DNA of 64,000 nucleotides, taken from Mobula hypostoma. Taxonomy: Eukaryota. This document shows positions 29,168 to 54,679 of the stretch, piece by piece. The notes beneath the pieces were generated by a model. It had not been told where the DNA came from. It did not search any database and was given only the letters and a program-made list of their open reading frames with translations. Each line of letters opens with the position of its first letter. The stretch's first letter is position 1. Made by a program: the position numbers and the translations under genes. Location: contig NC_086108.1 of NCBI RefSeq assembly GCF_963921235.1, forward strand, positions 7,440,001 through 7,504,000. The letters run 5' to 3'.

Positions 29168-29603
29168 TACAGAAATATGGACTGTTTGTCCCAATCCCAT
29201 CGGGGAGGAGGCTACGTGACATCCACGCCAGGGGCACCAGACTCAAAGATTATTTTCCCCAGGCAGTAAGGCTAATCGGCACTGCCACCCACTAACCCAA
29301 TCCTCCACACCCCCAACCACCAATGCTTTATCATTTCCCGTCAGTCACCTTTATGTCTAGACACTCCTGTGCCTAGCATCACTTTGTGAACGTACAATCT
29401 ATGTGTATAAAATATCTTATTAAATATTTATAATTATTGTCATTCACCATCTTATCTGTGTTCTTTATCTTATTATGTTTTTGTGTGGTGCTCCGGATCC
29501 GGTTTGTTTGTGGTGCTTCGTTCCCCTTCACACGTGTGTGTTGGAAATGACATTAGGCGATGTCGAGCCGGCCGGGAGCGGGCAGGGCGCGGCCCCTTTA
29601 AGA

Positions 29604-29614
29604 GGGAAATCTCC
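29604..29614. promoter_or_regulatory. NF-kB-like site
   Basis: GGGAAATCTCC; the reverse strand GGAGATTTCC fits GGRRNNYYCC; 6 nt from the p53 site. Confidence 0.35.
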
Positions 29615-29620
29615 GGAGAG

Positions 29621-29640
29621 TAACAAGTCTTGGCTTGTCA
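29621..29640. promoter_or_regulatory. p53-family response element
   Basis: TAACAAGTCT TGGCTTGTCA: two RRRCWWGYYY half-sites, zero spacer, both CWWG cores intact, 3 flank mismatches; lies in a CpG-rich patch upstream of the BBC3-like exons. Confidence 0.75.
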
Positions 29641-29649
29641 GACGGGCGC

Positions 29650-29657
29650 TGACGTCA
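29650..29657. promoter_or_regulatory. CRE (CREB/ATF) palindrome
   Basis: Perfect TGACGTCA 9 nt downstream of the p53 site. Confidence 0.55.
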
Positions 29658-29679
29658 GGCCGGAGGGTGACACCGAGCA

Positions 29680-29804
29680 GAGTGGCGCGGAGATTTTTAG
29701 TAGTTTGATCCTCGCTGTCAGCTCTGCGTAGCCTTAAGAGGATTAAACCATAACAAACAAACAACCCGACGCGACCCCCAGAACCCGCTCCGAAAGAAAA
29801 TCAG
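29680..29804 (+). other. BBC3: Probable non-coding first exon of the BBC3-like gene (start approximate)
   Basis: Unique CpG-rich, ATG-free stretch after the promoter motifs, ending in the donor-like CAG|GTTTGT at 29804/29805; the next exon has an acceptor 12 nt before its ATG and so needs an upstream exon. Confidence 0.5.
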
Positions 29805-34170: not shown

Positions 34171-34504
34171 TAGACTTTTCAATATTCAATAGGTTTCAGT
34201 GAGATTCCACCCCTGCCCCCCAACCTTGGAAGGAGAGAAGTAATGGTGAAGATGACAAAATGTTGAGGTATGTAGGTACCTGAAGTACAAAGGTTTTAAG
34301 TCTATAAGGCATTGGAGCAGAATTAGGCCATTCAGCCCATTGAGTCTGCTCTGCCATTCCATCATGGCTGATTTACTATCCCTCTCAACCCCATTCTCCT
34401 GCCTTCTCCCTGTTGGAAACATCCTTTCCACATCCACGCTATCTAGGCCTTTCATTATAGATTTCAATGAGATTCGCCCCACCCAATTCTTCTAAATTCC
34501 AGCA

Positions 34505-34865: not shown

Positions 34866-34879
34866 GATAGAAGGTGCCC

Positions 34880-35385: not shown

Positions 35386-35956
35386 ATCGAGTACTGAGGT
35401 GACTGAACCCGATGTCTGAACATCGATTTAGGTGCCGGGCAGGGTGAGGGAGGATCTGGTTCAGATCGCTGCTCCACAGGATTTACTCGTCTCTGCGCTG
35501 AACAGTGAGACTGCCTTGTGGATTCCAGCTCAGGACACTATTGCTTGTGGGTTTATTTTCTCTCCCTGCACATTAGGCGTTTGACAGTCTTTTTTTTAAT
35601 GTGTTCTGTTGGGTTTCATTGTTTTGTGGCTGCCCGTTAGGAGACGAGCCTCAAAGTTGTATATAGTATACATACATCGATAATACTTTGAACTTTCACC
35701 CGGCCACAAAGCCATCAACTCCGTCATCCAAATTGTTTACATAAATTGTGAAAAGAAGTGGTCCCAACACCATTCTCCTGCCTTCTCGCCATAGGAAACA
35801 TCCTCTCCATCTCCACACTATCGATATTCGACAGGTTTCAATGAGATCCCCTTTCATTCTTCTAAACTCCTGTGAGTTCAGATCCAGAGCCACAGAACGT
35901 TAGGCTGTAACACACCAGCAAGTAATTAGGAAGGCAAATTATCTTATATTGTCAGA

Positions 35957-36130
35957 GGGGCAGCACAGTGTGTAGTGGTCAGCACACTTCACAGTAGCAG
36001 CGACCCGGGTTCAATTCCCGCTACCGCCTGTAAGGAGTTTGTACGCTCTCACCATGACTGTGTGGGTTTCCTCCGGGTGCTCCGGTTTCCTCCCACAGTC
36101 CAACGGCTTTCCAGTCGGTAGGTTAACCCC
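35957..36130 (+). mobile_element. V-SINE/HE1-like SINE
   Basis: GGGTTCAATTCCC B box and GGGTTTCCTCCGGGTGCTCCGGTTTCCTCCCACAGTCCAA domain. Confidence 0.75.
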
Positions 36131-36894
36131 CACCTTCCATGTACCCATCCAAACTTGTACAACTGTGTACGTACTTCGATCATCCAAAGTCCAATCCACA
36201 AACCTCATCAATTAAACCTTGCCCAAGACCCAGAACTCCAAAATACATATACGTTACTGTACTACATTGAGATTAATCCTGCAATCACTTTGACCCACGA
36301 CCGTCAGGAAGGAGGTACAGGAGCATCAGGACTCGGACTGCCAGACTGGGCAACAGCCTCTTCCCTCAGACTGTGAGACTGATGAATACCCTGTCACTCC
36401 CGAGGTCTCGTCACTACCACAGCGAGCTGTTTACTGTCTACCTTTGCTGTGCACTACATACATATTCAGTTCTATTTTATTAACTTATTTATGGTATCAT
36501 TTAGTTTTATGTGCTGTGTGTGTGTCTGGCTGAAGGTTGTTTCATTTAGTTGTGTATATGTACAGTCAGATGATAATCAAGTTGGATTTCTACTTGTACT
36601 TGAATTTTCTATCACCTGCCAGCTTGACCTTCTTCCTGCTCCCCTCCATCTCCTTATTCTGGCTCCCCTCTCCTTCCTTTCCAATCCTGACGAAGGGTCT
36701 CAGCCTGAAACTGTTTATTCCTCTCCGTAGATGCTGCCTGACCTGTGACGGTCCTCCAGCATTTTATGTGTCTTACAGTAAATGTGTATTTTTTCTGGTG
36801 CCTTGGAGTTGTGTCAGGTGCTATAAAAATGCACGTCTCTCTGTGCGATAGCAGTAATGGGTGCTGTTTTGATTGCCAACAGGTGGAGAGGAGC

Positions 36895-37117
36895 ATGGCT
36901 AGACCATTTGATGAGGGAAATTCGTCAGAATCCTGCGCCCAGGAACACATCCAGTCGAACCTTGGCAACTGCACTGCCAGCAGCCCCGAGCAATACTCAC
37001 CACATGCCCATCTGCTTAGGGGTCAGGGAGAGTACTGCGATCACTCGGCAACTGTCCCAAACATCAGGAGACTGATAACGTGTGGCATGAACTCCACAAC
37101 CAACAGCTCGCTGCCTG
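36895..37117 (+). CDS. BBC3: BH3-only protein (PUMA-like), coding exon 1
   Basis: Acceptor CAG|G with exon start at 36883; AGCATGG Kozak context; MARPFDEGNSSES resembles the human PUMA N-terminus MARARQEGSSPEP; donor CTG|GTAAGG, phase 1. Confidence 0.8.
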
Positions 37118-38829
37118 GTAAGGTTCAGGACAACAGCTTGGGGTGGGGAAGGGGGTGAGTTGGGGCCTGTTCTGTTTCAAGGGTCTACGAGGGTCAGTGC
37201 CTTTTGCTCGAGCCTCCGCGTTCAAATCCTGCTCCAGGGAGCCAAGCACAGAACAAGCTGATGCTCCCGGTACGGCACCGAGAGGGTGCTACATCACTGA
37301 AGGTGCCAAAGTCTCACGAGAGGTTGACCTGGCCTTGGTGTCCCCTCAAAAAGTAGCTGGAAATTCTCAACGGGACAGACGGCACCTGCGGAGAGACAGA
37401 TTTATCCTTTCAGGTCAGTGAGGTTAAACTTGTAAACTTCCATCCAGGGTCCTTCAGCACACAATGCTGTGCCAACCCTCTAATCAATCCTTCCCCCCTA
37501 CACAGCCCTCCATTTCTCTGTCTTTCAAGACTGTCTAATGTCATTTCCAGAGCACAAGTGTAAAGGAGAATGAAATAATTGCAACTCCAGATCCAATGCA
37601 GCACAAATAACTCAGTAATGCACAATATATCGTGGATATATTGGACTTAGTGTGCATGCCACAAGAAATCAAATCTCAGGGTTGTATATGATGACATATA
37701 TGTAACTTTGACACAAAATTTACTTTAAACTTTGAAACTTTGGATACAACAGGGCCTTTTAAGAGACTCTTCGATAGGTACATGGAGCTTAGAAAAATAG
37801 AGGGCTATGCGGTGGGGAAATCCTAGGCAGTTTCTAGGGTAGGTTACATGGTCGGCACAACATTGTGGGCCGAAGAGCCTGTAACGTGCTGTAGATTTTC
37901 TATGTTTCTATGTTTTCTATGAAATGTATAAGATCGCTTAGACATGTAGATTGATTGTATGTCCATAGAGTGACACTAGGCACAGGAATGTCTACATAAA
38001 GTGACTGACAGGAAATTATAAAGTAGTGGTGGTTGGTGGGTTAGTGGGTGGAGGTGTTGATCAGCCTTACTGCTTGGGGAAAGTACCTGCTTTTCGGTCT
38101 TGTGGCCCTGGTGTGGATGTTGCGTAGCCTCCTCCCTGATGGGAGTGGAACAGACAGTCCATGAGCAGGGTGGGTGGGATCCTTCATGATGTCGCTGGTC
38201 GTATGTCCCTGACGGTACCTATTGAAGAGCCTGTTGTGTTTTCAGACTGTGCGGCAGGGGAGTATACTTGCAATGATGTGTGAATGCCAAAATGGCGATC
38301 CCCAACATCTGAACGTTCTCCTCTGTCGGCCGATGACTGTGGTGTCTCTCACGGTTGAATAGCCTGCCTGGATCTGTGTTTTCAGGGTGAGGAGGGGGGA
38401 GAGGGACTGTGTTTTTTCAGTGAGCAGACTGTCGTTCAGCTCATGTGAACATGCAGCTATTGTGTGCCCTGGAAGGCAAGTCGAGACTTGCCCCTCTCCC
38501 TTTTTCCTTAAAATCAATCAAAACAGCAGGCAGTAGGAAAAAGTGTAGTGCTTTCAGTGGCCACAGTCAAAGTTCGACCGAAGGAAGTTTATTATCAACA
38601 TACATATACGTCACCATATTTGGTGGTGGCATCCGTTAGTCTCGCGAGACCATGGATCTGCGCCTGGAAAGTCTTGCTTCACTCTCCAGGGCACAGGCCT
38701 GGGCAAGGCTGTATGGAAGACCGGCAGTTGCCCATACTGCAAGTCTCCCCTCTCCATGACACCGATGTTGTCCAAGGGAAGGGCAAGGGCCGATACAGCT
38801 TGGCACCAGTGTCGTCGCAGGAGTTGCCA

Positions 38830-39190
38830 GAACAAGATTGAAGGCCTTAGGGACTCCAGCTCCGGATTTGTCCTCAGGGTTTACTCCCAAAGCCTTTCCC
38901 ATGAGTGGGTACGGCCGCAAGGCAGCGGAGGTTTGAAATCAGAGTTTTCCCTCTCTTAGATGGACTGCCTTCCCAGGCTGACGAGCTCCATCTACTCGAA
39001 GCACTGGTTTTAAGGCGCCAGGACCCGCCTTCGCCCCTTCTCCTGTCAGTAGAAACAGTTCCGCTGGGTTTAGAGGCTAAGCCGCACGAGAAGGCCAGGA
39101 GTTGGACTTGGTTGTCAGAGGCTATTTGAGGCGCATGCAGTGAGGAGCACTTTTAGGTGGTGGAAGCTTATCCTCAGCTTGACAACCTAG
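38830..39190 (-). mobile_element. RTE-like retroposon 5' region
   Basis: TTTTCCCTCTCTTAGATGGACTGCCTTCCCAGGCTGACGAGC resembles reverse-strand RTE leader sequence from memory; it abuts the SINE tail at 38626-38830. Confidence 0.35.
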
Positions 39191-39711
39191 GAACTATATA
39201 GTACATCACCATATACTACCCTGAGATTCATTTTCTTGCAGGCATTCACAGCAACATAAAGAAATACAATAGGATTAATGAAAAACTGTATATAAAATCC
39301 TGGCAATTCTGGACAATGTTTCTCACTCTCTGCATGCCACCTTGGCTGAACAGAGGAGCACTTTTAGTAGCAGACTAAGACAACTGTACTGCTCCAAAGA
39401 GCGCTACATGAGGTCATTCTTACCCTTGGCCATTAGGCTGGACAATGAGTCAACCTATAGCCAGGGAAGTGATGACTCCCTCCTGTTAAACTTATTGTGG
39501 TAACTTGTTTTTTGTTATTTGTACTTCTCTTCTAATATTTATATCTCTGCACTTGTAATGCTACTGAGACAATGTAATTTCCTTTGGGATCAATGAAGTA
39601 TCTATCCATCTAGCTAAACAAAGACCGACAAACAACCAACTGTGCAAATAAAAAATATATACTTTTGAGAGCGAGAGTTGTAGAGTCCTTGAAGGGGAGG
39701 AAATAAATGTG

Positions 39712-39926
39712 CCTGAACCTGGTGGTGTGGGACCTGAGGCTCATTGTGATGAGTGAAGTTATCCACACTGGTTCAGGAGCCTGATGGTTGTGGGGTAATA
39801 ACTGTTCCTGAACCTGGTGGTGTGGGACCTGAGGCTCATTGTGGTGAGTGAAGTTATCCACACTGGTCCAGGAGCCTGATGGTTGTGGGGTAATAACTGT
39901 TCCTGAACCTGGTGGTGTGGGACCTA
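39712..39926 (+). repeat. 95-bp tandem duplication (~2.3 copies) within a Rex/Babar 3' end
   Basis: CCTGAACCTGGTGGTGTGGGACCT at 39712, 39807 and 39902. Confidence 0.9.
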
Positions 39927-40969
39927 AAGCTCCTGTACCTCCTGCCCGATGGCAGCAGTGAGAAGAAAGCATGGCCTGGATGGTGGGGTCCTTGATGTTA
40001 GATGCTGATTTCTTGCGGCAGTACTCTATGTAAATATCTCTCTGAAACCAAGCTGTTATGACCAGAGCTGGTGGTGGTCAACAGGATATAAAGGAGAATG
40101 TTTACCTGAAATGGAGGGAAACCCGCAAACAGACAAGCAATTCACACTGCTTGTAAGGAGTTTGTACGTTCTCCCCGTGGTCAACACCGTAGTGTAGTGG
40201 TTAGCACGTCGGTTTACAGTTCAGATAACTCGGGTTCAATTCCCACTGCTGTCTCTGTGGAGTTTGCATGTTTTCCACTGTGGTTGCGTGGGTTTGCTCC
40301 GGGTGCTCTAGTTTCCTCCCCCATAGCAGTTGGTAGGTGCATTGACCCTAAAGCTGTGATTGGGCTAGGGTTAAATCTGAATTAATAAAGAATAATAATA
40401 AATTAGTGTGGTAAGAACAAAGGAAAGACAGGACTGGAAAATCGTTGACTTAGTCTCAGTCAGACAAGAGATAACAACATTCCAGTGATAGCAGTTAATC
40501 TGTGAAATCACCAGTTTCAGGCCATGTGACACCTGCTACTGAAAACTAAGAAGCTTGTAGAAAAATACAAAAGCAACTGTAAAATTGCTGGGAAATTCAC
40601 TGAATTATTACATATATAGGGGTGATTATATTAAAAATAGAAGCAAGCATTGGAAACTTAAACCTGAAAAATAACAACTTTACACCCCAATTCAACACAT
40701 CATTCTGTGCTGTGTTATATGATGTTAGCGATCATGGTCTTTCCAGGACCATGATTGTTCTTGGCAGATTTTTCTACAGAAATGGTTTGCTATTGGTTTC
40801 TTCTGGGCAGCGTCTTTACAAGACGGGTAACCCCAGCCATTATTAATACTCTTCAGAGATTGTCTGCCTGGTGTCAGTGGTTGCATAACCAGGACTTGTG
40901 AAATACACCAGCCGCTCATACGACCATCCGCCACCTGCTCCCATGGCTTCATGTGACCCTGATGGGTGG

Positions 40970-41602
40970 GGACCTGACGCAGACTGGGAAACCGCTTTGC
41001 TGAACATCTACGCTCTGTCCGCCAGAGAAAGCAGGATCTCCCAGTGGCCACACATTTTAATTCCACATCCCATTCCTATTCTGACATGTCTATCCACGGC
41101 CTCCTCTACTGTAAAGATGAAGCCACACTCAAGTTGGAGGAACAACACCTTATATTCTGTCTGGGTAGCCTCCAACCTGATGGCATGAACATCGGCTTCT
41201 CTAACTTCCACTAAGGCCCCACCTCCCCCTCGTACCCCATCTGTTACTTATTTTTATACACACATTCTTTCTCTCACTCTCTTTCTCCCTCTGTCCCTCT
41301 GAATATACCTCTTGCCCATCCTCTGGGTCACCCCCCCCTTGTCTTTCTTCCCGGACCACCTGTCCCATGATCCTCTCGTATCCCTTTTGCCAATCACCTG
41401 TCCAGCTCTTGGCTCCATCCCTCCCCCTCCTGTCTTCTCCTATCATTTTGCATCTCCCCCTCCCCCTCCAACTTTCAAATCCCTTACTCACTCTTCCTTC
41501 AGTTAGTCCTGACGAAGGGTCTCGGCCCGAAACGTCGACTGCACCTCTTCCTATAGATGCTGCCTGGCCTGCTGCGTTCACCAGCAACTTTTATGTGTGT
41601 TG
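40970..41602 (+). mobile_element. 5'-truncated young Penelope-like element (GIY-YIG tail plus pLTR)
   Basis: Near-identical to 22915-23374 and to the reverse complement of 55044-55690; it interrupts the retroposon at 40700-40970. Confidence 0.9.
41505..41540 (+). ncRNA. Minimal type I hammerhead ribozyme, best-preserved copy
   Basis: AGTC-CTGACGA-A-GGGT-CTCG-GCCC-GAAA-CG-TC-GACT; predicted cleavage after C41536. Confidence 0.8.
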
Positions 41603-41820
41603 TATATATTTTATTTGACTTCTTTTACACATTGGTTATTTGTCAACTTGTTAATGTATAGTTTTTCATGAATTCCATTGTATTTCTTTATTTTGCTATG
41701 AACGCCTGGAAGAAAATGAATCTCAGGGTAGTATATGGTGACGTATATGCACATCAATAATAAGTTTACTTTGAACGTTGACTTTGATTGCTCCTGACGT
41801 GGTTCTCTGGTTATTTCCAG

Positions 41821-41993
41821 GTGAGGTGCAGCGGATTCAGTCGACGATGCTGGACGCAGGCATGAATTCACCAGTTATAGCTCAAGGCAACAGCTTCCAC
41901 CACGAGACGGGGAACGACGAGGTCATTGTCCGCCAGATTGGAATCCAGCTCCGCCTCATGGGTGATCTGTTACACAACTCCCACGTGGAACGG
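41821..41993 (+). CDS. BBC3: BH3-only protein (PUMA-like), coding exon 2 containing the BH3 motif
   Basis: Acceptor TTATTTCCAG|GT (phase 1); IVRQIGIQLRLMGDLLHNSHVER aligns to human PUMA WAREIGAQLRRMADDLNAQYER; donor CGG|GTGAGT, phase 0. Confidence 0.9.
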
Positions 41994-42325
41994 GTGAGTC
42001 CACCGGCGTTTCCTTTCAGGTCCTGTCTTTTGACTTCATGCAGTGTGATGGAAAACTCTCCAGCTGACTGGATGAGAACAGAGCCGACAACCCTTCACGT
42101 AGCAACTGGCACCATCCAGGATGAAAGCACAAGAGCTATTGGAAACCCAGAGCAACACCTGCAGAACACTGGAAGAATCTGATGAAGTGTCTCAACCCAA
42201 AACGTCGGGTGTTTATTCCTCTTCATGGATGCTGAGTGCCTCCAGCATATCGTGTGTGTTACCATCCAGATCAAACCAGCCGGTCAGCACTGGCTATAGC
42301 CAACCCTGTGCAAACGTCTCTCCAC

Positions 42326-42404
42326 CAGGGGTTCCCAAACATTTCCACACCCTGACCAATACCACTAAGCAAGGGGTCCGTTGCGCCCAGGTTGGGAACC
42401 CCTG
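42326..42404. mobile_element. 79-bp hAT-type MITE
   Basis: Perfect 13-bp TIR CAGGGGTTCCCAA/TTGGGAACCCCTG; same family as 32052-32131. Confidence 0.75.
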
Positions 42405-42409
42405 TTACA

Positions 42410-42950
42410 CTGTCATGAAATTACTTGTTTTGTGGCAGCAATATTCCATCAAATTAAACATGGCCATCAATTGCAACAAGAATATATAATTAATTAAGCA
42501 GTGCAAAATAAAGAGGTAGGGTTCATGGGTTTAACGATGTTTCAGAAATCTGGTGTCAGAGGAGAAGGAGCTATTTCCAGGACATTGGGTGTGTGTCTTT
42601 AGGGTCTTGTAACTCCTCGTTGATGGTAGCAATGAGATCAGGGTATGTCCAGGGCGAGGCTCCTCAAAGGCGAATGCTGCCTTCTTGGGGGCATTGCTTT
42701 CTGGTGACGTTCTCGATGCTGGGGAGGCCAGCGCCGTTGATGGGGCTGACTGAGCTTGCAACCCTCAACAGCTTTTTCAAACCTTGTGCACTGGAGACTC
42801 CACACCAGACAGTGCTCGAACCAGTCAGAATGCTCTGCACAGTACATCTGTAGAGGTTTGCTAGGGTCTTCGGTGACATAACAAGCCCCCTCAAACTCCT
42901 AATGAAATATAGTCATTGTTGTGCCTTCTTCGTAATTACATCAATATGTT
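42410..42950 (-). mobile_element. Rex/Babar-type LINE 3' fragment
   Basis: KTLANLYRCTVQSILTGSSTVWCG and PSTRSYKTLKTHTQ motifs. Confidence 0.75.
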
Positions 42951-43774
42951 ATATACTAATAACACAATGTTTTATACCAATGACTCAAATTCGTTGGTTT
43001 TAACGTGGTGGCGGTACGACTGTACCAAAGGAGGTGTAAGACACTCCTTTCTCCGCTAGCCTGCAGATCACCCTTGGGCAAGGTGTGAAGGTGTGAAGGT
43101 GTGAATGTGTGGCACCTGCTTAGCCCCCCCCACCCACCTCCCCTCGGTCAGGCCAATCATAGTTTTTCATGATCATGATTGCTCTTGGCAAATCTTTCTA
43201 CAGGGTGGTTTGCTATCGCCTTCTCCTGGGCAGCGTCTTTACACGAAACGGGTAACCTCAGTCATTCTCAATACACGACAGAGATTGTCTTCCTGGCGAC
43301 AGTGGTCGCATAACCAGGACTTGTGATACCCATCAACTGCTCACGTGACCCTGGTCGGGGGGTCTAAGCAGGTGCTACACCTTGCCCAAGGGTGACCTGC
43401 AGGCTAGCGGAGGGAAGGAGAATTTTACACCTCCTTTGGTAGAGATCTATCTGCACTCTGCCACCCTAGGGTTACTAATCTTAAATGATTGGTCATGATT
43501 TATTAATGCTAACACATAATAGTTACAACAGTGAGAAGCCTTTAAGGCACAGCATTGCTCACTAACCTGACGCTAGCAGGTCTTGACCACGTGTGAAGGG
43601 GCTGTTTTGATTTGACGGTTCAGGGCTGTTGATCTGAGGGTGTTTTGGAGGTTCAGCGAAGCTGAGTAATGTAGGTTCCTGTCTGGATGCTATACAAGCC
43701 AAATAGAGCACCTCAGCACAGAAACAGGCCCCTTACCCATCTAGGCCCTGCCATTCCATCATGGCTGATTACAT

Positions 43775-44290
43775 GACAACACACACAAAATGCTGGAGGA
43801 ACTCAGCAGGTCAGGCAGCTTCTATGGAGACGTATAAACAGTCAACTCTTCCTCAGGACTGGAAAGGAAGTGGGGAGGACACCAGAATAAAAAGGTGGGG
43901 GGGTGGTGTGGGGAGGAGGATAGATAGTAGAAGGTGATAGGTGAAACCAGGTGGGTGGGCAAGGTCAAGGGTTGGAGGGGAAGCAACCTGATAGGAGAGG
44001 AGAGTGGACCATGGGAGAAAGGGAAGGAGGGAAGGTGATAGGCAGGTGAGAAGAGGTAAGGAGCCAGAGTGGGGAATAGAAGAGGGAAAGGAAAGGGGGG
44101 GGATTTTTTTTATCAGAAGGAGAAATCGATATTCGTGCCATCAGGTTGGAGGCTACCCAGACGGAATATAAAGTGCTTCTCCTCCGCCCTGAGGGTGGCC
44201 TCATCGCGGTACAAGAGGAGGCCATGGACCGACTTGTCAGAATGGGAACGGGAATGGGAATAGGAATTAAAATGTTTGGCCACTGGAAAT
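43775..44290 (-). mobile_element. Penelope-like element, older subfamily
   Basis: PVAKHFNS...EEKHFIFRLGSLQPDGTNIDFS GIY-YIG tail followed by a pLTR. Confidence 0.8.
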
Positions 44291-44959
44291 TCCACTGATT
44301 GATTTTCCCTCCCAACTCCATTCACCCGCCTTCTCCCCATAACCTTTGATGTCCTTACTAATCAGGGAACTATCAATGTCCACTTCAATACATCCAACGG
44401 CTGGTCCTGTGGCAACGAATTCCACAGGTTCACTGGACTTTGGCTCAAAAAGTTCCTCCTCAACTCTGCTCTAAAGTGACTTCCTTCTAGTTTGAGGTCC
44501 TATACTCCCCTGCTACAGGAAACATCCTCTCCACATCCACTGTATCAAGGCCCTTCAGTATTCAATAGGTTTCAATGAGACTCCAGTGAGTACAGGCCCA
44601 GAGCCATCAAAGGCTCCTCATATGTCCAGGGGAGAACGTACAAAGTCCTTAAAGGCAGCGGTGGGTTGCCAGTACTGCAATAGGGTTACATTGACCACTG
44701 GACTACCGTGCTGTTAAACTGCAGGCTCGTACGCCTCGGGTTCAGAGTTCGTAGGTGGTTCAGGTGGGTTGCGTTGGTGCCTTTGAGGAGATTGGGGAAG
44801 ATCAGGGACTAGAGTGCAGAGTTCTGACCCAGCAAGGCCTGCGTGTGTGTCTTCTATAAAAATATATAGAAGACATCATAACCCAACAATTTTCTTTAAT
44901 TGGACACCAAATCCCGAAATAGCCCAACTTGTATTTTTTTCCACTGTTTTTGTTAGGCA

Positions 44960-45170
44960 GAAACACAGAGGTTGCCAGTGAGATCGTGGAATGCTGCTGG
45001 GACTCAGCAGGTCAGGAAGCATCTATGGATTTCGGGCTGAGAAGGTGAAAGATCCCGGCCCGAAATGCCGACTGTTTACTCTTTTTCCATAGACGCTGCC
45101 TGTGAGTTCCTCCGGCGTTTTGTGTGGGTTACTCTGGATTTCCAGCTTCTGCAGACTTTCGCTTGTTTAT
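44960..45170. mobile_element. Short fold-back Penelope pLTR-derived element
   Basis: GACTCAGCAGGTCAGGAAGCATCTATGGA...TTCGGGC is mirrored by GCCCGAAA...TCCATAGACGCTGCCTG. Confidence 0.6.
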
Positions 45171-46629
45171 TATTGTTTATGTTTTGGTGCCGTCGACTCT
45201 CTCCCGGGCCAGCGATATGGATCCTGGCCAAGTTTGAGTTGGTCATTACCTCAAATGCCCTCAGTCTACACAGACTGCTGGACAAAGCTTAATGGTTATC
45301 TTGTTACATTACATCAAGAAGTTTGTTCAAGTCATTCCATACCTTAGGCTCTCTCACCTCAATAATCTTTAGAACTTCCCCTCTCCATTTCTGACCTCTG
45401 AATGGTCCCCAAATTTACTGATATGAGGGGATCGATTTCGAGGCAAATTAGTTCAGTTTTTATGATGCTCAGGTTTCTAGTTCTAGTTATGGTCACTCTT
45501 TTTTATTACTACTTTTGGGTGATTTTTGAATCAGGGCTGCCTGCAGGTAATGAACACCAGGCTGGACTGAGCTGAAATATGCCTTTTGGTTTTGGGTTTT
45601 ATATTCTGCGTTTTCGCTCATTTTTTTGGTTGCCATTTGTACATGATGTTTGCAGTTTGCCATTTGTACATGGGGGTGGGGGGAGGGGGTTTTGATGTTT
45701 GCAGTTTGCCTTTGAACGGGTTGGTTCCATGGTTCTTTGTTTTGTGGCAGTCTGTGGGAAAGACGGATTTCAAGGTTGTATGCTGCATACTTACTTAGAT
45801 AATAAATCTACTTTGAATCTTTGAAATGGAGGGTTATGTGGAAGGGAAGGTTTAGAGGAGATTGGGGCGAGCGAGGCACCCCTCCCCCATCCTAGCCATT
45901 TTTTACAGGAGCACCATCGAGTGTCCTGACCAGCTGCGTCACTGTCTGGTGTGGGAATGGCAAGGCAGCCTACTGTAAGTCCCTTCAAAGGACTGTGAGG
46001 ACCAACCAGAGTCTCTCTTTCACCCATTAGAGATATTTATCAGGAGCACTGTATACACAGGGCCCCTAGCCTTGACAATAACTCCCCCCAGCAATCTCTT
46101 TGAGGTACCATAGCATTCGGGCAAGGACTGTGAGGATGGGAAACAGCTCCTTGCCCCAGGGCCTGCCACCATTTCGGTCTCATCATGCTTGAAGCGCCAG
46201 TAGTGTTATACTGTTTACTTTTTAACTTGTCTCATAAATGCGCCTTGCTATTTGTTAATTTATTTGTGGTCATATTGTTTTACGTGTTGTGCACCTTGGT
46301 CCGGAGCAGCATTGCTTCATTTGGTGGTGTATACGTGTGCAGTTGACGGATGATAAACTTGAACTTGAGATTGATCTTGGAGTAGGCTCAAAGCTCAGCA
46401 CAACATGATGGGCTGAAGGGCCTGCAGTGAGCTGTGGTGTTCTGTGTTCTCTGTTCCCTGTCACCGTTGGGTCACTGCATAAACTTACACTTGAATGGTA
46501 CGGCTGTGTGGCGTCTCAAGGGCTGTAAACAGAGACTGCAGACTCAGTTAAAGTAAACAGTTTGTTACCTGCGTGCAGCAAAGCAGGCAGACAGAGATTT
46601 CCCAGCATCTGTCAGGGCACTGTCCATCT

Positions 46630-47165
46630 TTCAGTAATTTCTCCTTCCCTCCCCTTCGCTCTTTTTCCATTCTCCATTCTAGATCCCCTCTCACCCCTTC
46701 CCTTCTCCTCACCTGCCTATCACCGCCTTCTGGCCCCCCTTTTCCTTCCCTATCTCCCACAGTCCACTCTCTTCTCCTATCAGATTCCTCCTTCTTCAGC
46801 CTGTTATGTCTTCCACCCATCACCTCCCAGCTCCTCACTTCATTCCCCTCTCCCCACCCACTCATTCCCCCCTCACCTACCGTCTCCTCTCATTCCCTCC
46901 TTCCCTATTCCCCATGGTCGCCTGTCCTCTTCCATCAGTCTTCAGCACTTTACCACCCAGCTTCTCACTTCATCTACCCTCCCCTCACCTGGTCTCACCT
47001 ATTACTTGCCAGCTTGTACTCCTCCCACCTTCTTATTCTGGCCTCCTCTCCCTCCTTTCCAGTCCCGATGAAGGGTCTCGGCTTAAAATGTCGACTGATT
47101 ATTCCCCTCCATAGATGCTGCCTGACCTTCTGAGTTCCTCGGGCATTTTTTGTGTGTGTTACTGT
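46630..47165 (+). mobile_element. Penelope-like pLTR, older subfamily, with mutated hammerhead (47061-47096)
   Basis: Pyrimidine-rich body including CCACCCATCACCTCCCAGC, then AGTCCCGATGAAGGGTCTCGGCTTAAAATGTCGACT. Confidence 0.75.
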
Positions 47166-49319
47166 GAGTCCCCTGGTCTGGGCAACCTCTTCTCAGTGAT
47201 TACTTCTGCTTTCCTATACCAGCACCACCCCCCCCCCACTCCTTATTCCCAAAGGGTCCCAACCGGGGCTTCTGACCCAAACCAGTCACAAAAGATCCTC
47301 ACAAGTATTAATTATAAATGATTACAACTACTTATTAACAGAAAGATGCTGGAAATCCAGAGATCACTGTCATGATGTGCACCAGCAATATTGGAACCCG
47401 AGTATAGAGAAAAGACAGACTCGATGTAGACATGTTGACAGGAGTTTATTCATAATCATTCCAAAAGAACATCTGTGACACCGAGAGAATTAACACTCTC
47501 AAAACTAGGACCCCATGATTAGCACAAATCAGGCATCCGCTTAAACGATACAATTAACATGGAATTCCCGAGCCTGTCAAAATAAACGTAACAAGCTCAA
47601 ACAGAAGGCAGCAGGAAACAGCATTACGAAGAGTGAGTCGCTGAGGAATAACACAGGGAACTCCGAATGATGAATGACTGTGTTAAACAACAATTAAACA
47701 ATTCAGGTGCTCTAAAAACCTCCGAGCCCAATGCCCCGCTCATCCCAAATGCACACAAAATGCTCAGTAGGGGCTCAGTCTGAAACGTTGACTGTCTATT
47801 TCTCTCCATTGATGCTGCCTGTCCTGCTGAGCATTACAGCTAGTTGGGGGGGGGTTTGTTTCAGAGGCTTAGAGATTGTTCCCCTTCTTTCCTCCCCCTA
47901 CTACTCTCAGCAGGTTTCTAGAAAAAGGTGATGTTTAATATGGAGGTGAGGAGGAATCTCTTCCCTCAACAAACTTTTGGGGCTGTCTGTTTCCCAGGGT
48001 TTGAATGTCTAATACCAGACGGCCTCCATTGAGGGAGGTGGGGGTAGGTTCAGGGGGGATGTGAGGGGTAAGTTTTCTACTCAGAGAGTGGTGGATGCCT
48101 GGTATGTGCTGCCTGGTCTGGTGGTAGAGGCAAATACATTAGGGGCTTTTAAGAGACGTTTGGATAGGCACATGGATGGAACAGGGAGATGGAGGGATAC
48201 AAACATGGTATGGGTAGGAGGGATTGTTGTTTGGGTGTTTCTGATTTGCTTTTTAGCACAACATTGTGGGCCGAATGGGCTGTTCTGCGCTGTAGTGCCT
48301 TATGTCTTCCCCAGAGAGTCTTGAGGCTGGTCTTTAGGTCTGTAGGTCTGTGGTATATAGAACATAGACCAGTACAGGCCCTTCAGCCCGCGATGTTGTG
48401 CCGGCCCTTGAACCTGCTCTAAGATCAATCTAACGCTTCCCTCTTACATAGCCCTCCATCCACGTGCCTGCCTAAGAGTCTCTTAAATGTCTCGAATTCA
48501 TTTGCCTCAATCGACTCTTTACTCCTCTCCCTGCCTTGCTGAGTTCCTCCAGTACTTTTGTGTGTGAATCTATTCTCTCCCTTTTCTGGAACGTTTCTCA
48601 GCGCCGCGGACACTGTGGAATGGTCGCTCGGCTGCCGTGGCGTGTTCTTGTTAAAGGCAGTATGATCGTTCCTCTCGCCTCGGCTGACTCCGCGGGGTTG
48701 TTTAAGGAGCGCTGCTATCGGCTCTGTATATATACAGTGTTATTTATAGCGCCTGACTCACCGGGCAGCTGGCTGACAGTCCCGTGACTCTCTCTCTCTC
48801 TCTGTCTCCCGCCCCCTCGCTCTCTTCCCCCTTTCAGTCTGCCTTCCCCCTCTCTCACTCGTCTCTCCCCTCTCTCCCCCCTTCCCTCCCTCCGGACCCG
48901 GATCCAGCCGACCCCAGACTTCATCTGCTAAACAAACGGAGAGTCTTTGCCAGCACCCGGCGACTGGCGACTGGCGACTGCGCTTCCCATCTGTGTGCCC
49001 TCCCCCCAGCCCCACCACCAAACCGAAACCCTTTACAGGCACAGTCCCGTGGTTGAGGTGGGCGACGGAATGTGTGATGTGAGGATATTGGTGGGAGGGG
49101 TGGAGAGGTTTTGTGCCCGCGCAATCTTCGCTGATTTGACACAAACAACGCACTTTACTGCGGGTTTCGATGTACACATGACAAATAAAGCTAATCTTTC
49201 TCGTTCCTGTTTGATGACAGGAATTACTGGTGAGAACTTGCAGGCCAGGTCTGTGCATCATATTAAACCAGAGCTTCAGATGGTTAATAATAAATAAATA
49301 AAAATTATCTTTAAAATAA

Positions 49320-49980
49320 GGGCGTCTGCAGATGCTGGAAATCCAGAGCAACTTACACAAAATGCTGGAGGAACTCAGCAGGTCAGGCAGCATCTATGCA
49401 GAGGAATAAATGGTCAACATTTCGTTGAGAGACCCTTCACCAGGATTGGAAAGTAAGGGGGAAGAAGCCAGAATAAAAAAAGTTGGGGGAGGGACAGGAG
49501 GACCAGCTGGAAGGTAAACACAAGGGATTCTGCAGATGCTGGATAACCACAATGACACGCACAAAGCTGGAGGAACTCAGCATCTATGGAAATTAATAAA
49601 CGGTCGACGTTTCAGGCAAAGACCCTTCTTCAGGACTGGAAAGGAAGGGGGAAGATGCCAGAATAAAAAAGGTGGGGGGAGGGGAAGAAAGACAGCTGGA
49701 AGGAGATAGGTGGGTGGGAAAGGTCAAGGGCTGGAGAGGAAGGAATCTGATAGGAGAGGAGAGTGGATCGTGGAAAGGGAAGGAGGGGACCCAGGGGGAA
49801 GTAATTGGCAGGTAAGAAGAAGTAAAAGGTCAGCGGAGAATAGAGGAAGGAGGGGGGGAGGTGGAATTTGTTTACCAGAAGGAGAAATCGATATTCATAC
49901 CATCAAGTTGGAGGCTACCCAGACGTTGTTGGTGTTGTTCCTCCACCCTGAGGGTGGCCTAATCTTGCAACAAGAGGACC
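49320..49980 (-). mobile_element. Penelope-like element with tandem pLTR tails (two degenerate hammerheads)
   Basis: CTGCAGATGCTGGA...GACCCTTCxxCAGGAxTGGAAAG...GCCAGAATAAAAAA repeated at ~49326 and ~49530; the GIY-YIG tail follows. Confidence 0.75.
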
Positions 49981-50789
49981 TTTATTTGTCACATGTATAC
50001 AGAAGCCTACAGAGAAATGTATTGTTTGTGTCAACAACCAACCCAGTCCACAATGCTGCACTTCCGGTGCCAACATAACACGCCCACAGTACTCTGTGCC
50101 ATGTCGTATGACGTGGGCGATCATGGGCTTTCCGTGACCATGATTGTTCTTGGCACATTTTTCTACAGAAGTGGTTTGCCATTGCCACCTTCTGGGCAGT
50201 GTCTTTACAAGATGGGTGGCCCCAGGCATTATCAATATTCTTCAGAGATCAAAGAACCAATTGTTTGGAATCAAATAACTTGCCTGGTGTCTTGGGGCTG
50301 AGTGTGCCTACATCCATGCCACACTCTCCTCCCCCCCCCCCGGCACTCCTCTACCACCTGTCCCACACTCCTCAGTCTTCGCCAATCCCAACATCCATTG
50401 CTCCCGCCAGATTTTAAAACTCACGCTCCTCTCCACGTAGACAAATACAGTACTGTGCACAGGTCTTACACATCCTAGCTATATATATATCTTAGACTTT
50501 TGCAATATACTGCATTTTTTTTTACACAGAGAGGTGGTGGGTGCTTGGACCAGATATTTACTTTTTTAATATATATTTCTTATTGTAACTCATAGTGTAT
50601 TTTATGCATTGCAATGTACAGCTGATGCAAATCAACAAATTTTGTGACATATGTCAGTGATAATGAACTTGATTCTGATCTGATTTAGTTTTGATTTTTA
50701 GGGTAACATTAGAAATATGCTCTGGAGCACCACCTGTTGGCCAAAGTCCACAATTATATGGTTACTGTTGACATGGCAAAATTAAATAG

Positions 50790-51380
50790 TCATAGCCATA
50801 CTTTATTGATCCTGGGGGAAATTGCTTTTCATTACAGTTGCACCATAAATAATAAATACTGTAGTAATAAAACCTTAAATAGTTAAATAGTAATATGTAA
50901 ATTATGCCAGTAAATTATGAAATAAGTCCAGGACCAGCCTATTGGCTCAGGGTGCCTGACCCTCCAAGAGAGGAGTTGTAAAGTTTGATGGCCACAGGCA
51001 GGAATGACTTCCTATGACACTCTCTGCTGCATCTCGGTGGAATGAGTCTCTGGCTGAATGTACTCCTGTGCCCACCCAGTACATTATGTAGTGGATGGGA
51101 GACATTGTCCAAGATGGCATGCAACTTGGACAGCATCCTCTTTTCAGACACCACCGTCAGAGAGTCCAGTTCCATCCCCACAATATCACTGGCCTTACGG
51201 ATGAGTTTGTTGATTCTGTTGGTGTCTGCTACCCTCAGCCTGCTGCCCCAGCACACAACAGCAAACATGATCGCACTGGCCACCACAGACTTGTAGAACA
51301 TCCTCAGCATCGTCCGGCAGATGTTAAAGGACCTCAGTCTCCTCAGGAAATAGAGACGGCTCTGACCCTTCTTGTAGACA
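50790..51380 (-). mobile_element. Rex1-type LINE 3' end
   Basis: VYKKGQSRLYFLRRLRSFNIC...FAVVCWGS...RKSFLPVAIKLYN. Confidence 0.85.
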
Positions 51381-51394
51381 GTTGGAAGTTGATG

Positions 51395-52085
51395 ATCAGA
51401 ATCAGGTTTTAGTATCACTGGCATATATCGTGAAAATTGTTGTCTTCATTGCAGCAATACATTGCCATAATAGGAAAAGTTGTGAATTACCGTAAAAAGA
51501 TATATATAGTTAAATTAAACAAGTAGTGCAAAAGTAGTGAGGTAGTGTTCATAGGTTTGATGTCCATTCAGAAATCGGGTGGCAGAGGGGAAAAAGCTGT
51601 TCCTGAATCGTTGAGTGTGTGTCTTCAGGCTCCTGTACCTCCCCCCTGATGGTAGCAATGAGAAGAGGGCATGTCCTGGGTGATGGGAGTCCTTAATGAT
51701 GGATACTGCCTTTTTGAGGCATCGCTCCTCGAAGATGTCCCGGATACCACGGAGACTAATGTCCATGATGGAGCTGACTAAGTTTCCAACTTTCTGCAGC
51801 TTATTTCAATCCTGTGCAGTAGCCCCACCCCCACCGCCACCCCCATACCAGACAGTGATGCAGCCAGTTAGAATGCTCTCCACAGTACGTCTGTAGAAAT
51901 TTACAAGTGTCTTTTGTGACAAACCAAATCTCCTCCAAACTCCTAATGAAATGTAGCTGCTGTTGTGCCTTCTTTGTAGCTGCATCAATATGTTGATCCT
52001 CAGATACATTGACATCCAGATATTTGAAATTGCTCACCCTTTCCATTTCTGATCCCGCGATGAGGACTGGTGTGGGTTCACTCAT
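51395..52085 (-). mobile_element. Rex/Babar-type LINE 3' end
   Basis: NFYRRTVESILTGCITVWYG and HPGHALFSLLPSGGRYRSLKTHTQRFRNSFFPSA. Confidence 0.85.
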
Positions 52086-52292
52086 CTTATTAACAATACT
52101 GATTGTGAAATATGACATCAGAAGCAATGCTTAGGATTGGGAACATTTTGGACAATGTGCATAGTGCCTTAAAAAATGGAAATTAACGTGGCAGTCTTGA
52201 GTCCTGTCTGTCCTGTTGTGAGATTTGCTAGGGTTCTGTATGAGAGCTGAGTTTCCCTTGCTTAACTGTTCTCTTGTCTTTGATATTGGCAG

Positions 52293-52394
52293 GCTGCGGA
52301 GTGGGATCGGAGACACTGGCCAGTCTGGTACTGGACACTGCTCAACTTCTTCATGCACACCCTGGCCATCTTCCGCATGCCTCGATGGCGGTGA
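52293..52394 (+). CDS. BBC3: BH3-only protein (PUMA-like), last coding exon with hydrophobic C-terminal tail
   Basis: Polypyrimidine tract and CAG|GCT acceptor, phase 0; AAEWDRRHWPVWYWTLLNFFMHTLAIFRMPRWR* resembles human QRHRPSPWRVLYNLIMGLLPLPR. Too short to appear in the ORF track. Confidence 0.8.
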   Translation, partial: AAEWDRRHWPVWYWTLLNFFMHTLAIFRMPRWR

Positions 52395-53363
52395 ACTCCG
52401 AGAGCTGGCGGGGCAGGAATGGGAGGAAGGATATCGAGAACACCAGCCGGCCAACGCCTGAGGAATTTTTGAAGTTATTCTTCCACTAAACTTGATTCCG
52501 CTGGACGGATATGACAAGAGGAAGGGAGAACGGAAGGAACTTACCGATTCAGAATCAAGAAGTAGAATAATGTTGTTGGAGTGACCACCATCTAAACAGG
52601 AATTTTCGTATTCTGAGGGGTGGGGTGGGCTGAGCCAGTCTGTAGCAACCTTTCCTCCCATCCCACCTTGATGTGAAATAACCTTGAACGCCAGGTTGTG
52701 TTTGCTAAGGAAAGCGAAGCATCCTGGGACTTTATCCAACTCAGGGTCCAATTTCATCACTGCCCTTAAATTCAGGAGACTTCACGCGGCGCTGTGGATC
52801 TGTGGGTGGGGAGGATGGAGGGAACGGAGAAGATTATTGGCCTTCGGATGCATTGTTCTCTGTGGGAAGCTTTGGGTCTTAAACCACAAGCAGCTTCCTT
52901 TCACAGGTGGTGCGGGGAGAGAAGGAAATCAGTAGCCTGAGTCTTTCACTTCCAATTTGGTACTATTCACTGCCTAGAACTTCCTTTCCCCAAAGGAAAA
53001 TGAGACGGGGACTTTCATAGTTACAATCTCTCCTTGTGGGAGGCAGTGACTTGGGCAAGTCATCTGACGTTTGGCAGCATTCTCAGGAACTGATTCCCGT
53101 TGTCCGAGCAGGAAAAGCTTCCTTGGAGAAACATATCCCGTTGCAGTAAAGACTTTGGCTCCCTTCCCCTCTCTCCCCTCATCCCCTCAACCCACAAAAA
53201 AGAATACATACATTTCCAAACATTTTGTCTCGAGGTTAGGGAAAAACTGAGAACTGGAAGCGTTGAATTGACCACTGCTTTGTACCAGGGGGTGCCTAAT
53301 CATTGTTTAACAGGGGTGGATAACCACGGTTGCTCCATCCCTCGGAGTGACGCACTGAGGTCG

Positions 53364-53397
<34 letters not shown>

Positions 53398-53534
53398 AGC
53401 AACCAGTGGGGACCAGTCCAAGGTACGTGGGCTCATTAACTTCTTGTCCCACCACTTGCTGTGTAAAACTGACCCCATGATATTTAAACCTATTTAAGAC
53501 AAATGCCATAAAAATACAACAAATGTTTTGATAA

Positions 53535-53577
53535 ATGTAGCAATGATGAATCAGGCCAGTATAACCCACCTCAGGGA
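53535..53577 (+). promoter_or_regulatory. miR-221/222 8mer (ATGTAGCA, 53535-53542) and miR-125 8mer (CTCAGGGA, 53570-53577)
   Basis: Exact 8mer seed matches 27 nt apart; both miRNA families are reported PUMA repressors in mammals. Confidence 0.6.
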
Positions 53578-54417
53578 ACAAACCTAGAGAAACACTTCCA
53601 CCCTGTTCCGTATCTGTGTAGGTATATATTTTTTTGGTCTCATCCAAAGGGACGTCAAGTGTTTTGTGTTTTATTTCCTATCAAACAGGCTGGTATTTAT
53701 TTTTCCGTGTAATTGTTCGATCGGAGTCCTCGTTTAATCTTTTCCGCTCCTCGGAAGAACTGTACCTTCAAGTGAAATTTACAGGCAAAGAAATGCAAAA
53801 AAGTATGTCTAGTCCTGGCCTGTTGCTGAGGCAGGCATGTCCATGATCTGCCCCCTTCACCCAGCCCTTCTGTGGGATTTGCTTAATCTGACTCCATCCC
53901 CTCAGTTGGTGGAGGGTGACCACTGCAGGTGATAATCACTCCCCCCTCCCACCCAGCTCCCCACTGATGTGACTGCGCACAGGCAGACCACAGCTTAAAG
54001 ATGGGCTCTTCCTGACCTCTCCAACTCGAACACTAGCGGGTGCAGCTAATGACTGAGCCACTTAGGGGAGACAAACACTTGCGACGATGGAATACAGAAT
54101 TGTCGGGCGTCCGGGCAGGACGGGAGATGGATAATCGGTTGGCTGTTTGGTATTCAACGAGTTGGAAATCACTCCTTCTGCCCTGTCACCTGAGACGTAT
54201 TCCACCATTCTGTGACATACTGAGCAACCCCCCTATCCCAGGTAACTCCTGGCTCCTAGAAGTTATTGACACCTTCCTCCCCAGTGAGGGGTAAAGAGCA
54301 GGGTCCTGGGGTTTTGTATAGATATGTGTATACCTAATTTACTTCGTTCCTAGTAATACTCTTTAGATTCCTTTTTTTATTGTTTTTGGAAGACTCATTT
54401 TTGTAAAATCATTTTCC

Positions 54418-54423
54418 AATAAA
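54418..54423 (+). terminator. Polyadenylation signal AATAAA
   Basis: Preceded by U-rich sequence and followed by the GU-rich TTGTGTGTTCTTT about 20 nt downstream. Confidence 0.6.
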
Positions 54424-54679
54424 AATTGAAACAGAGAGGTTAGCCTTGTGTGTTCTTTGGAACGGGGGGGGCACGGTGGAGGGGTGATGGAGAGTGGATG
54501 AGCTGGTGCTTGAGCTGATAACACCTGGATAACAAAGATTTTGCTTCCTGAATACTTTTGGGTGTATCCTATGGATTTTGGGCTGCTGATCTGAGAATCA
54601 CCATGAAATATCCCTTTCACGCATTTTTAAAAATCACCTGTATTTGTTATTGCAATTCATAATTCAGGCCAGAATATGG

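Follow-up and report, generated by a model that had tools for sequence, protein, structure and literature searches.

A spliced BH3-only gene with three coding exons in Mobula hypostoma, a probable elasmobranch ortholog of PUMA/BBC3

Structure of the gene

The window, meaning the whole 64-kb stretch of Mobula hypostoma DNA that was analysed, contains a spliced gene with three coding exons, each placed in sequence that occurs only once there.

36883..37117, + strand: coding exon 1; ATG at 36895, residues 1-74, phase-1 donor, predicted disordered
41821..41993, + strand: coding exon 2; residues 75-132, phase-0 donor, bears the BH3
41937..41975, + strand: BH3 motif of 13 residues, Ile114-His126, with Leu118 and Asp123
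52293..52394, + strand: coding exon 3; residues 133-165, stop at 52392-52394, aromatic/hydrophobic tail at 52317-52373 followed by a basic end
52395..54434, + strand: 3' UTR of about 2.0 kb; five ATTTA pentamers, AATAAA at 54418

Joined, the coding exons give 498 nt encoding 165 residues without an internal stop, with intron phases 1 and then 0, and the ATG has A at -3 and G at +4. The exons are bounded by an acceptor CAG before 36883, a donor GTAAGG after 37117, an acceptor before 41821, a donor GTGAGT after 41993 and an acceptor before 52293; on a simple weight table, both donors outscore 99% of the GT sites in the window. The initial annotation had proposed these three exons with canonical GT-AG sites and the same phases, and all of its coordinates hold.

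Its two junctions, 37117/41821 and 41993/52293, were also found in assembled contigs. A single contig joins the three exons in 4/4 runs examined (3 studies, 3 organisms; 12 runs listed), the exons sitting in consecutive record coordinates each time; these contigs are labelled 'RNA?' or '?', none being on record as RNA, and give neither strand nor level. They differ from the window exons by 0 letters in both runs of one organism, by 0/0/38 in the second organism and by 2/3/21 in the third. The gene exceeds its earlier extent at both ends. Downstream, the last exon runs to about 54434: the contigs of two runs (X2 and X3) span 52292-53359 and 53409-54434, the gap being an AC repeat, and end at 54434, while that of another (X5) is continuous through the 3' UTR to 54394. 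Upstream, three of the spliced contigs carry 223-229 further letters that are unplaced in the stretch compared.

One could argue that exon-like pieces had been assembled by chance, or that the gene is dead, given that 0/3 exon peptides reach a Pfam cut-off alone and that the spliced runs lack an RNA designation. This reading is already refuted by the spliced contigs and the orthologs: the joints are exact in the contigs of all three studies and organisms, and colinear open orthologs exist in nine species, with tblastn E-values of 1e-11 or better per exon present. Its probability is practically nil.

No neighbour genes were found in the 64-kb window. Of 294 flanking ORFs listed, 105 in unique sequence were searched with Pfam (the set left out ORFs inside the gene and LINE ORFs, and one ORF was added); chance-level matches only were returned, in 12 of them. 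Pfam matched neither the 135-aa open frame that surrounds exon 2 nor 11 of the 13 ORFs in 1-1100, and short SAE1- and CCDC9-like motifs were unmatched in the window. The LINE ORFs lie at 57.9-59.7 kb. Stop-free frames of a 79-bp satellite were rejected as genes.

BH3 motif, N-terminus and tail

A strict BH3 pattern has a single match in six frames of the 64 kb, and it falls inside coding exon 2. According to the BH3 consensus in PMC6124574, a small residue (G/A/S) precedes the Asp and the position after it is often acidic; Ile114-His126 agrees everywhere except at the latter position, which is Leu in Mobula and Gln in 9/9 orthologs. Multi-domain Bcl-2 Pfam families gave no match in the nine orthologs. 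With a consensus BH3 and no other BH domain, the BH3-only reading is firm.

The dipeptide at the Asp is Gly-Asp in the window and in 3/3 skates, and Ala-Asp in 6/6 sharks, as in human PUMA. GDLLH in place of ADDLN had earlier been noted as a possible shift in BCL-2-family selectivity; we rejected Gly-Asp as an unusual BH3 state, since the consensus permits G, A or S and Gly is an ordinary small residue there (PMC6124574). On sequence comparison, Gly-Asp is a batoid-derived change that returns to the usual consensus. Along the human PUMA peptide of PDB 6QFM, the ray BH3 is identical at 11/21 residues and the BH3 of one shark at 12/21. The Trp that precedes the human PUMA BH3 is replaced by Ile or Leu in 10/10 elasmobranch sequences.

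The N-terminal 110 residues consist of 35% Ser/Thr/Asn/Gln and 12% Pro/Ala. In the model of a shark ortholog, pLDDT is below 50 over residues 5-110 and one helix spans 111-166; the N-terminal two-thirds are accordingly predicted to be disordered and followed by one BH3 helix. A Foldseek search with this low-confidence model returned one irrelevant match (E 8.8). The tail reaches a mean Eisenberg hydrophobicity of 0.63 over its best 19-mer and a Kyte-Doolittle peak of just 0.78, a moderate hydropathy; three of its last six residues are Arg, and it terminates in a conserved Pro-Arg-Trp. Position 10, a phospho-degron Ser in PUMA that had been offered as a sign of PUMA ancestry, is Ser in Mobula and in 4/8 orthologs that share the start, whereas Ser11 is present in 8/8. 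Being variable, Ser10 was dropped as evidence of orthology.

Orthologs in sharks and skates

Nine shark and skate orthologs were found, all labelled 'uncharacterized' or 'hypothetical'.

Leucoraja LOC129714204; Amblyraja LOC116967782; Rhinoraja LOC144611822
Rhincodon LOC125487279; Stegostoma LOC132206616; Cetorhinus LOC144671502
Mustelus LOC144511474; Scyliorhinus scyTo_0020253; Chiloscyllium chiPu_0018519

Identity to the Mobula peptide is 38-45/74 residues for exon 1 in 8/9 orthologs (the ninth is annotated with another N-terminus), 23-39/57 for exon 2 in all nine and 22-29/33 for exon 3 in all nine, the last exon being the best conserved. When the BH3 and tail of a shark ortholog served as query, a word-based search scored 6/7 candidates, all sharks; when the exon-2 peptide was compared with longer proteins, none of the three candidates was scored. 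The gene had been described as hidden, but unnamed is the better word: public models exist in nine relatives, six of them with a precomputed Pfam PUMA match. Six of the nine locus names were looked up in the literature and no paper mentioning them was found, and no description of an elasmobranch PUMA was found among the literature matches listed.

Putative promoter and p53-like sites

Upstream of coding exon 1, we infer a probable promoter and non-coding first exon. The p53-like sites were examined only after the PUMA hypothesis had been formed.

29576..29804, + strand: putative promoter and non-coding first exon; CpG o/e 1.07, GC 56%, unique DNA
29621..29640, + strand: p53-element-like site in the putative promoter; spacer 0, both CWWG cores intact, 3 flank mismatches
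38474..38493, + strand: p53-element-like site in the intron after coding exon 1; spacer 0, 1 consensus mismatch, unique DNA

The upstream region holds GC-box-like, TATA-like, NF-kB-like (29604) and FOXO-like (29753) motifs, and the sole TGACGTCA of the window is located there, at 29650. The putative first exon has no ATG after 29562 and ends at a donor at 29805 that ranks in the 94th percentile; the 229 nt upstream of this donor equal the length of the longest unplaced 5' part among the spliced contigs. A tblastn search with the orthologs' 5' extensions did not locate the first exon among the matches listed.

With the human PUMA promoter p53 probe as printed in PMC4226670 taken as the reference, 29621..29640 is identical at 14/16 central bases. 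Across the 64 kb it is the sole probe match at 2 mismatches or fewer (expected 0.07; found in 7/100 shuffles), and it stands at chance level when scored on the generic p53 consensus alone. Matches to that consensus with 3 mismatches are not evidence, numbering 8 across the window against 14.3 expected. The intronic site is the only consensus match in the window with at most 1 mismatch (expected 0.12; 10/100 shuffles, or 13/300 with both cores required), and it ranks second in match to the human PUMA probe. Two p53-like sites with intact cores lie within the gene, each with p of 0.04-0.10, modest alone.

Family assignment

Taken together, Pfam searches on the orthologs, peptide searches against the PDB and the p53-site-like elements support the proposed identity with PUMA, and we consider it highly likely that the gene is the elasmobranch ortholog of PUMA/BBC3. 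The PUMA family (PF15826, cut-off 26.4 bits) is the top family in 9/9 orthologs; it exceeds the cut-off in 6/6 sharks (27.4-31.9 bits) and 0/3 skates. The separate Mobula exon peptides fall below it, exon 2 reaching 12.3 bits (E 0.21), which is no better than the chance matches in 12/105 flanking ORFs. In the PDB, PUMA peptides made up 4/4 matches for each of two family profiles, 7/7 for a shark BH3 stretch and 3/5, including the top two, for the ray BH3, all PDB E-values being 0.027 or weaker. SAE2, the lone PDB match of the whole exon-2 peptide (E 0.38), was rejected as chance. Word-based and phmmer searches retrieved no bony-vertebrate PUMA, BMF or BIM.

In the main competing assignment, the gene would be a paralog related to BMF, or a distinct BIM/BMF/PUMA-group member retained by cartilaginous fishes, acting as a BH3-only sensitiser and looking PUMA-like only because it evolves slowly. 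BMF (PF15185, cut-off 27 bits) is indeed second in 8/9 orthologs, at 13.5-22.9 bits, and BMF clusters come first (0.84) for the exon-2 peptide in the ESM Atlas, where BMF, BBC3 and BMF-like score equally (0.90) for one shark ortholog. The N-terminal part is poor in Pro/Ala. The stretch that follows the BH3 Asp presumably resembles BMF, as do the aromatic tail and a Cys-Gly motif located 12 residues ahead of the phase-1 junction. However, 0/9 orthologs reach the BMF cut-off; PUMA leads by 2.1-13.9 bits in the eight with a BMF match, and its matches extend further upstream in the profile, whereas those of BMF are confined to the BH3 plus tail. Five PDB searches with the family or its BH3 gave no BMF or BIM peptide, in a library that we take to contain both. 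The TQT dynein-light-chain motif, which we take to be a BMF feature, was not found in the gene's frames nor in 9/9 orthologs. Furthermore, the putative promoter bears a PUMA-like p53 site, and BMF is not known to be a primary p53 target. We regard this assignment as unlikely. A survey of the family lists BMF and BIM as separate genes of Chondrichthyes (PMC8998228).

An ortholog of BIK, HRK, NOXA, BAD, BID or PXT1 is more improbable still, to the point of being hardly credible. Weak Pfam BID matches (E 0.21-0.33) occur in 3/9 orthologs, a BID variant peptide comes last among the five PDB matches for the ray BH3, and PXT1 clusters appear at 0.79 and 0.89 in the ESM Atlas. Yet Pfam BIK, HRK, NOXA, BAD and PXT1 are unmatched at E up to 10 in 9/9 orthologs, and the shark ortholog model has no BID-style helical bundle.

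Possible mechanism and evolutionary implications

By analogy with mammalian and zebrafish PUMA, p53-family proteins responding to DNA damage or stress would occupy the promoter and intron sites and induce the gene, possibly with additional input from NF-kB, CREB/ATF and FOXO, while the AU-rich 3' UTR would hold resting levels low. The hydrophobic tail would direct the protein to the outer mitochondrial membrane, and the BH3 would fold into the groove of BCL-2, BCL-xL or MCL-1, with Ile114, Leu118, Met121 and Leu125 filling the pockets and Asp123 forming a salt bridge; this binding would release or activate BAX/BAK. The gene does not amount to a new mechanism. Since the Trp is Ile or Leu in all ten elasmobranch sequences, the function of this residue in human PUMA, namely partial unfolding of BCL-xL and release of p53, was probably a later addition.

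According to a 2022 survey of the family, sharks and rays possess BIM, BMF and BID, and PUMA first occurs in Holostei, from gar onward (PMC8998228). If the gene is PUMA, the last shared ancestor of jawed vertebrates already had the main p53 death effector, names can be given to nine shark and skate loci now called 'uncharacterized', and elasmobranch studies of apoptosis, DNA damage and toxicology gain a marker missed by name-based analyses. The shark sequence, which evolves slowly, forms a bridge between PUMA and BMF and therefore helps to date their split. As natural variants, the batoid replacement of Ala by Gly and the absence of the Trp could serve to probe groove selectivity.

Going further, we tentatively raise a pair of possibilities, which even jointly we hold to be conceivable rather than probable. 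In one, the p53 element of the PUMA promoter and the adjacent stress-factor sites would have persisted near-letter-for-letter since the split of shark and human, so that the p53-to-PUMA death switch would be ancestral to jawed vertebrates and the Trp-dependent BCL-xL/p53 release newer. In the other, the gene would not be PUMA, but a further p53-controlled BH3-only gene of the BIM/BMF/PUMA group, one that combines traits of PUMA and of BMF and was lost in bony vertebrates.

Comparison with known systems

The nine elasmobranch gene models represent the same gene as that of the ray: the three exons align in order and give 157-173 residues from the conserved start. Some differ in 5' extensions or tail-less read-through isoforms, and Rhincodon has another N-terminus.

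As in PUMA/BBC3, the BH3 lies in the penultimate exon, near the exon end, and we take the intron phases and positions of human PUMA to equal those of the ray gene. Both have a disordered N-terminus, one BH3 and a hydrophobic C-terminal tail (PMC12632054). In human PUMA, too, non-coding 5' sequence precedes three coding exons, and the p53-, NF-kB-, CRE- and FOXO-like motifs of the putative ray promoter have counterparts reported for PUMA (PMC8197724).

Several differences from PUMA stand beside these likenesses. The ray N-terminal part is Ser/Thr/Asn/Gln-rich rather than Pro/Ala-rich; Ile or Leu takes the place of the Trp before the BH3; human Arg-Met-Ala-Asp corresponds to batoid Leu-Met-Gly-Asp; and the residue after the BH3 Asp is Gln (Leu in Mobula), not acidic. 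Ser10 is variable in elasmobranchs, the tail ends in Pro-Arg-Trp, and the ray's strongest consensus p53 site lies downstream of the first coding exon. The likeness to BMF (PF15185) resides in the BH3 plus aromatic tail, matched in eight of the nine orthologs; the differences are that all nine stay below its cut-off and lack the TQT motif.

Gene structure and splicing

The BH3-only gene is real, and the initial annotation placed its exons correctly: acceptor, start codon, donors and stop lie as claimed, and the exons join in phases 1 and 0 into 498 nt encoding 165 amino acids with no internal stop.

Coding exons of the BH3-only gene
36883–37117, + strand: first coding exon; AG directly before 36883, ATG at 36895, then donor GTAAGG
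41821–41993, + strand: second coding exon; donor GTGAGT directly after
From 52293, + strand: third coding exon; stop codon at 52392–52394

None of the exon DNA recurs elsewhere in the window, where SINE and LINE repeats form the background, and the strict BH3 pattern has a single match in the six frames of the 64 kb, located in the second exon. The last exon is present in 12 runs (contig sets), none of them on record as RNA, and four of these (two from organism A, one from B and one from C; three studies) were compared with 34450–54440. In all four, 36883–37116, 41820–41992 and 52292 onward are consecutive record coordinates of one contig, so that both junctions proposed for checking by RNA-seq were found, in runs with no RNA record; the one-base offsets arise because a G is common to both sides of each joint. 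Mismatches to the window in the three exons were 0/0/0 in both A runs, 0/0/38 in B and 2/3/21 in C. The contigs carry no strand or expression-level information. Since the joints are exact GT-AG joints in three organisms, the plain reading is mRNA, a spliced DNA copy being formally possible; the chance that the gene is an artefact is very small. Both A contigs end at 54434, shortly past AATAAA at 54418, giving a 3' UTR that measures about 2.0 kb and contains five ATTTA pentamers, and three contigs carry 223–229 extra 5' letters with no placement inside 34450–54440.

Elasmobranch orthologs

A phmmer search with the exon-2 peptide against 1.84 billion representatives gave three matches (little skate, cloudy catshark and whale shark), and a profile built from these retained nine proteins out of 1902 candidates, six from sharks and three from skates. 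All nine are named 'uncharacterized' or 'hypothetical', and a precomputed match to PF15826 (Pfam PUMA) is already on all six shark proteins. These searches, which require shared words or strong scores and hence give no evidence of absence, found no protein from chimaeras or bony vertebrates.

All three exons align colinearly. The tail exon is conserved most (22–29 of 33 residues identical to the orthologs), followed by the first coding exon (38–45 of 74 in eight orthologs, the whale-shark model having a different N-terminus) and the BH3 exon (23–39 of 57). Within the variable, disordered region, the first 11 residues (36895–36930) and a Thr-Cys-Gly towards the 3' end of the first coding exon (37078–37086) are near-invariant in all eight aligned orthologs, possibly as a degron or binding motif. 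A terminal Pro-Arg-Trp (52383–52391) is common to the ray and all nine orthologs. Three ortholog proteins, P0007, P0008 and P0019 (skate, whale shark and zebra shark), are annotated isoforms that keep the BH3 with the tail exon replaced; the replacement ends of P0007 and P0008 match repeat-derived DNA in the window, and the three are either tail-less isoforms or annotation read-through.

Family assignment

The gene is very probably a PUMA ortholog. The suggested search with a PUMA-family HMM bore this out in part: PUMA is the top Pfam family for all nine orthologs, and its cut-off of 26.4 bits is exceeded by all six sharks (27.4–31.9) but by none of the three skates (15.6–21.5). The ray exon-2 peptide alone has PUMA as its sole match at 12.3 bits (E 0.21), which is chance level, since 12 of 105 flanking ORFs also matched Pfam families at E 0.008–0.29. 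Searches of the PDB returned PUMA peptides in 4/4 matches for each of two family profiles, in 7/7 for a shark BH3 stretch and in 3/5, including the top two, for the ray BH3; the E-values are weak (0.027 to 1.1), and the worth of these searches lies in their consistency.

A BMF-related gene or an extra paralog would instead fit the ESM Atlas, where the ray peptide has BMF-labelled clusters at the top (0.84, no more than a lead) and the basking-shark protein has BMF, BBC3 and BMF-like clusters tied at 0.90, its recognition falling short of the tool's threshold. Parts of the tail and the Cys-Gly motif before the phase-1 junction are also what we take to be BMF-like. In Pfam, BMF is matched by eight of the nine orthologs, always under its own cut-off and 2.1–13.9 bits behind PUMA, and the TQT motif is absent from the gene and all nine orthologs; we consider BMF or a paralog unlikely. 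For a shark ortholog, AlphaFold (mean pLDDT 54, from an 8-row alignment) predicts disorder up to residue 110 and a single helix at 111–166, which is as expected for a BH3-only protein and uninformative on family. To some other single-BH3 gene we give very little probability. No neighbour genes were found within the window.

The structure and splicing of the gene are established, as are its conservation, the BH3 and the tail; for the PUMA reading, PUMA biology further suggests that the gene would be induced by stress-activated p53-family proteins, that the tail would direct the protein to mitochondria, and that the BH3 helix would bind pro-survival BCL-2 proteins, leading to BAX/BAK activation.

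Candidate promoter and p53-like sites

A unique CpG-rich stretch at 29.56–29.80 kb (o/e 1.07) includes motifs resembling a GC box, a TATA box, an NF-kB site and a FOXO site, and the sole TGACGTCA of the window. A donor of moderate strength lies at 29805; counting back from this donor, 229 nt is the length of the longest unplaced 5' contig part. We infer a candidate first exon at about 29.6 kb. A second such stretch at 31300–31620 (o/e 0.90, GC 58%) lies in the probable first intron and contains a donor-like site at 31327; it may serve as an alternative first exon comparable to exon 1b of human PUMA.

With both CWWG cores and at most three flank mismatches required, the only p53-like sites in 17.8–64 kb are 29621 (29621–29640, candidate promoter) and 38474 (38474–38493, intron after the first coding exon), both within the gene. 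The intron site is the window's sole match to the p53 consensus at one mismatch or fewer (10/100 shuffles; 13/300 with cores required). The promoter site is at chance level against the generic consensus; against a human PUMA promoter probe, taken from the accessible part of PMC4226670, 14 of 16 central bases are identical, making it the sole match at two mismatches or fewer (7/100 shuffles), with the intron site second best. These shuffle counts span the whole window, not the 250-base promoter alone, and belong to tests chosen after the hypothesis. A 267-base contig of one run, X3 (38252–38518, depth 3, no differences), spans the intron site; its source may be pre-mRNA, DNA or an enhancer transcript.

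Other features of the window

A 79-bp satellite fills 1182–17785 (about 210 copies, 94–96% match); all three frames of its C/T-rich + strand are free of stops for about 16.8 kb, which is most likely mechanical, not coding. Broken frames at 57927–60387 are presumably LINE reverse transcriptase, and a frame at the window end (63477–63998, no Pfam match) is one that we take to be gag-like, from an LTR element. A unique stretch at 19336–19705 contains an open frame of 135 aa, without a Pfam match, and has a GTGAG donor-like site close to its end; it may represent either a low-copy repeat or one exon of a neighbour that went unrecognised.

Comparison with known PUMA

In the literature searched, which leaves out older subscription papers and figure-only supplements, we found no description of an elasmobranch PUMA and no mention of six ortholog locus names; the accessible portions of PMC4743058, PMC9876281, PMC7022251 and PMC13763252 hold nothing on shark PUMA. 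Other shark annotations may already be named bbc3. If the gene is PUMA, the family's known range extends to cartilaginous fishes and nine anonymous loci gain a name; the gene reveals no new mechanism.

According to the accessible text of PMC8197724, human PUMA has three coding exons and non-coding exons 1a and 1b, and is regulated by p53-family, NF-kB, FOXO and CREB input; use of zebrafish puma depends on p53 and p63 (PMC8245518). Ser10, the main phosphosite in human PUMA (excerpt of PMC12632054), was noted in the ray by the initial annotation and is indeed Ser there, but in only four of the eight orthologs that share its start; Ser11 occurs in 8/8.

The BH3 of all six sharks has the Met-Ala-Asp of human PUMA, whereas the ray and all three skates have Met-Gly-Asp, so the Gly is batoid-derived. 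It falls within the G/A/S consensus at this position (PMC6124574, accessible text). The residue before Met is Leu in batoids; a PUMA peptide with Cys there kept its binding to ten MCL-1 homologs, for the most part at 100 nM–1 uM (PMC10927572, accessible text), so a large selectivity shift is not implied; the initial annotation had suggested that the ray's GDLLH could shift selectivity. A clearer difference from human PUMA lies at the Trp by which the human protein enables partial unfolding of BCL-xL (PMC12896748, as excerpted): each of the ten elasmobranch sequences has Ile or Leu at the aligned position.
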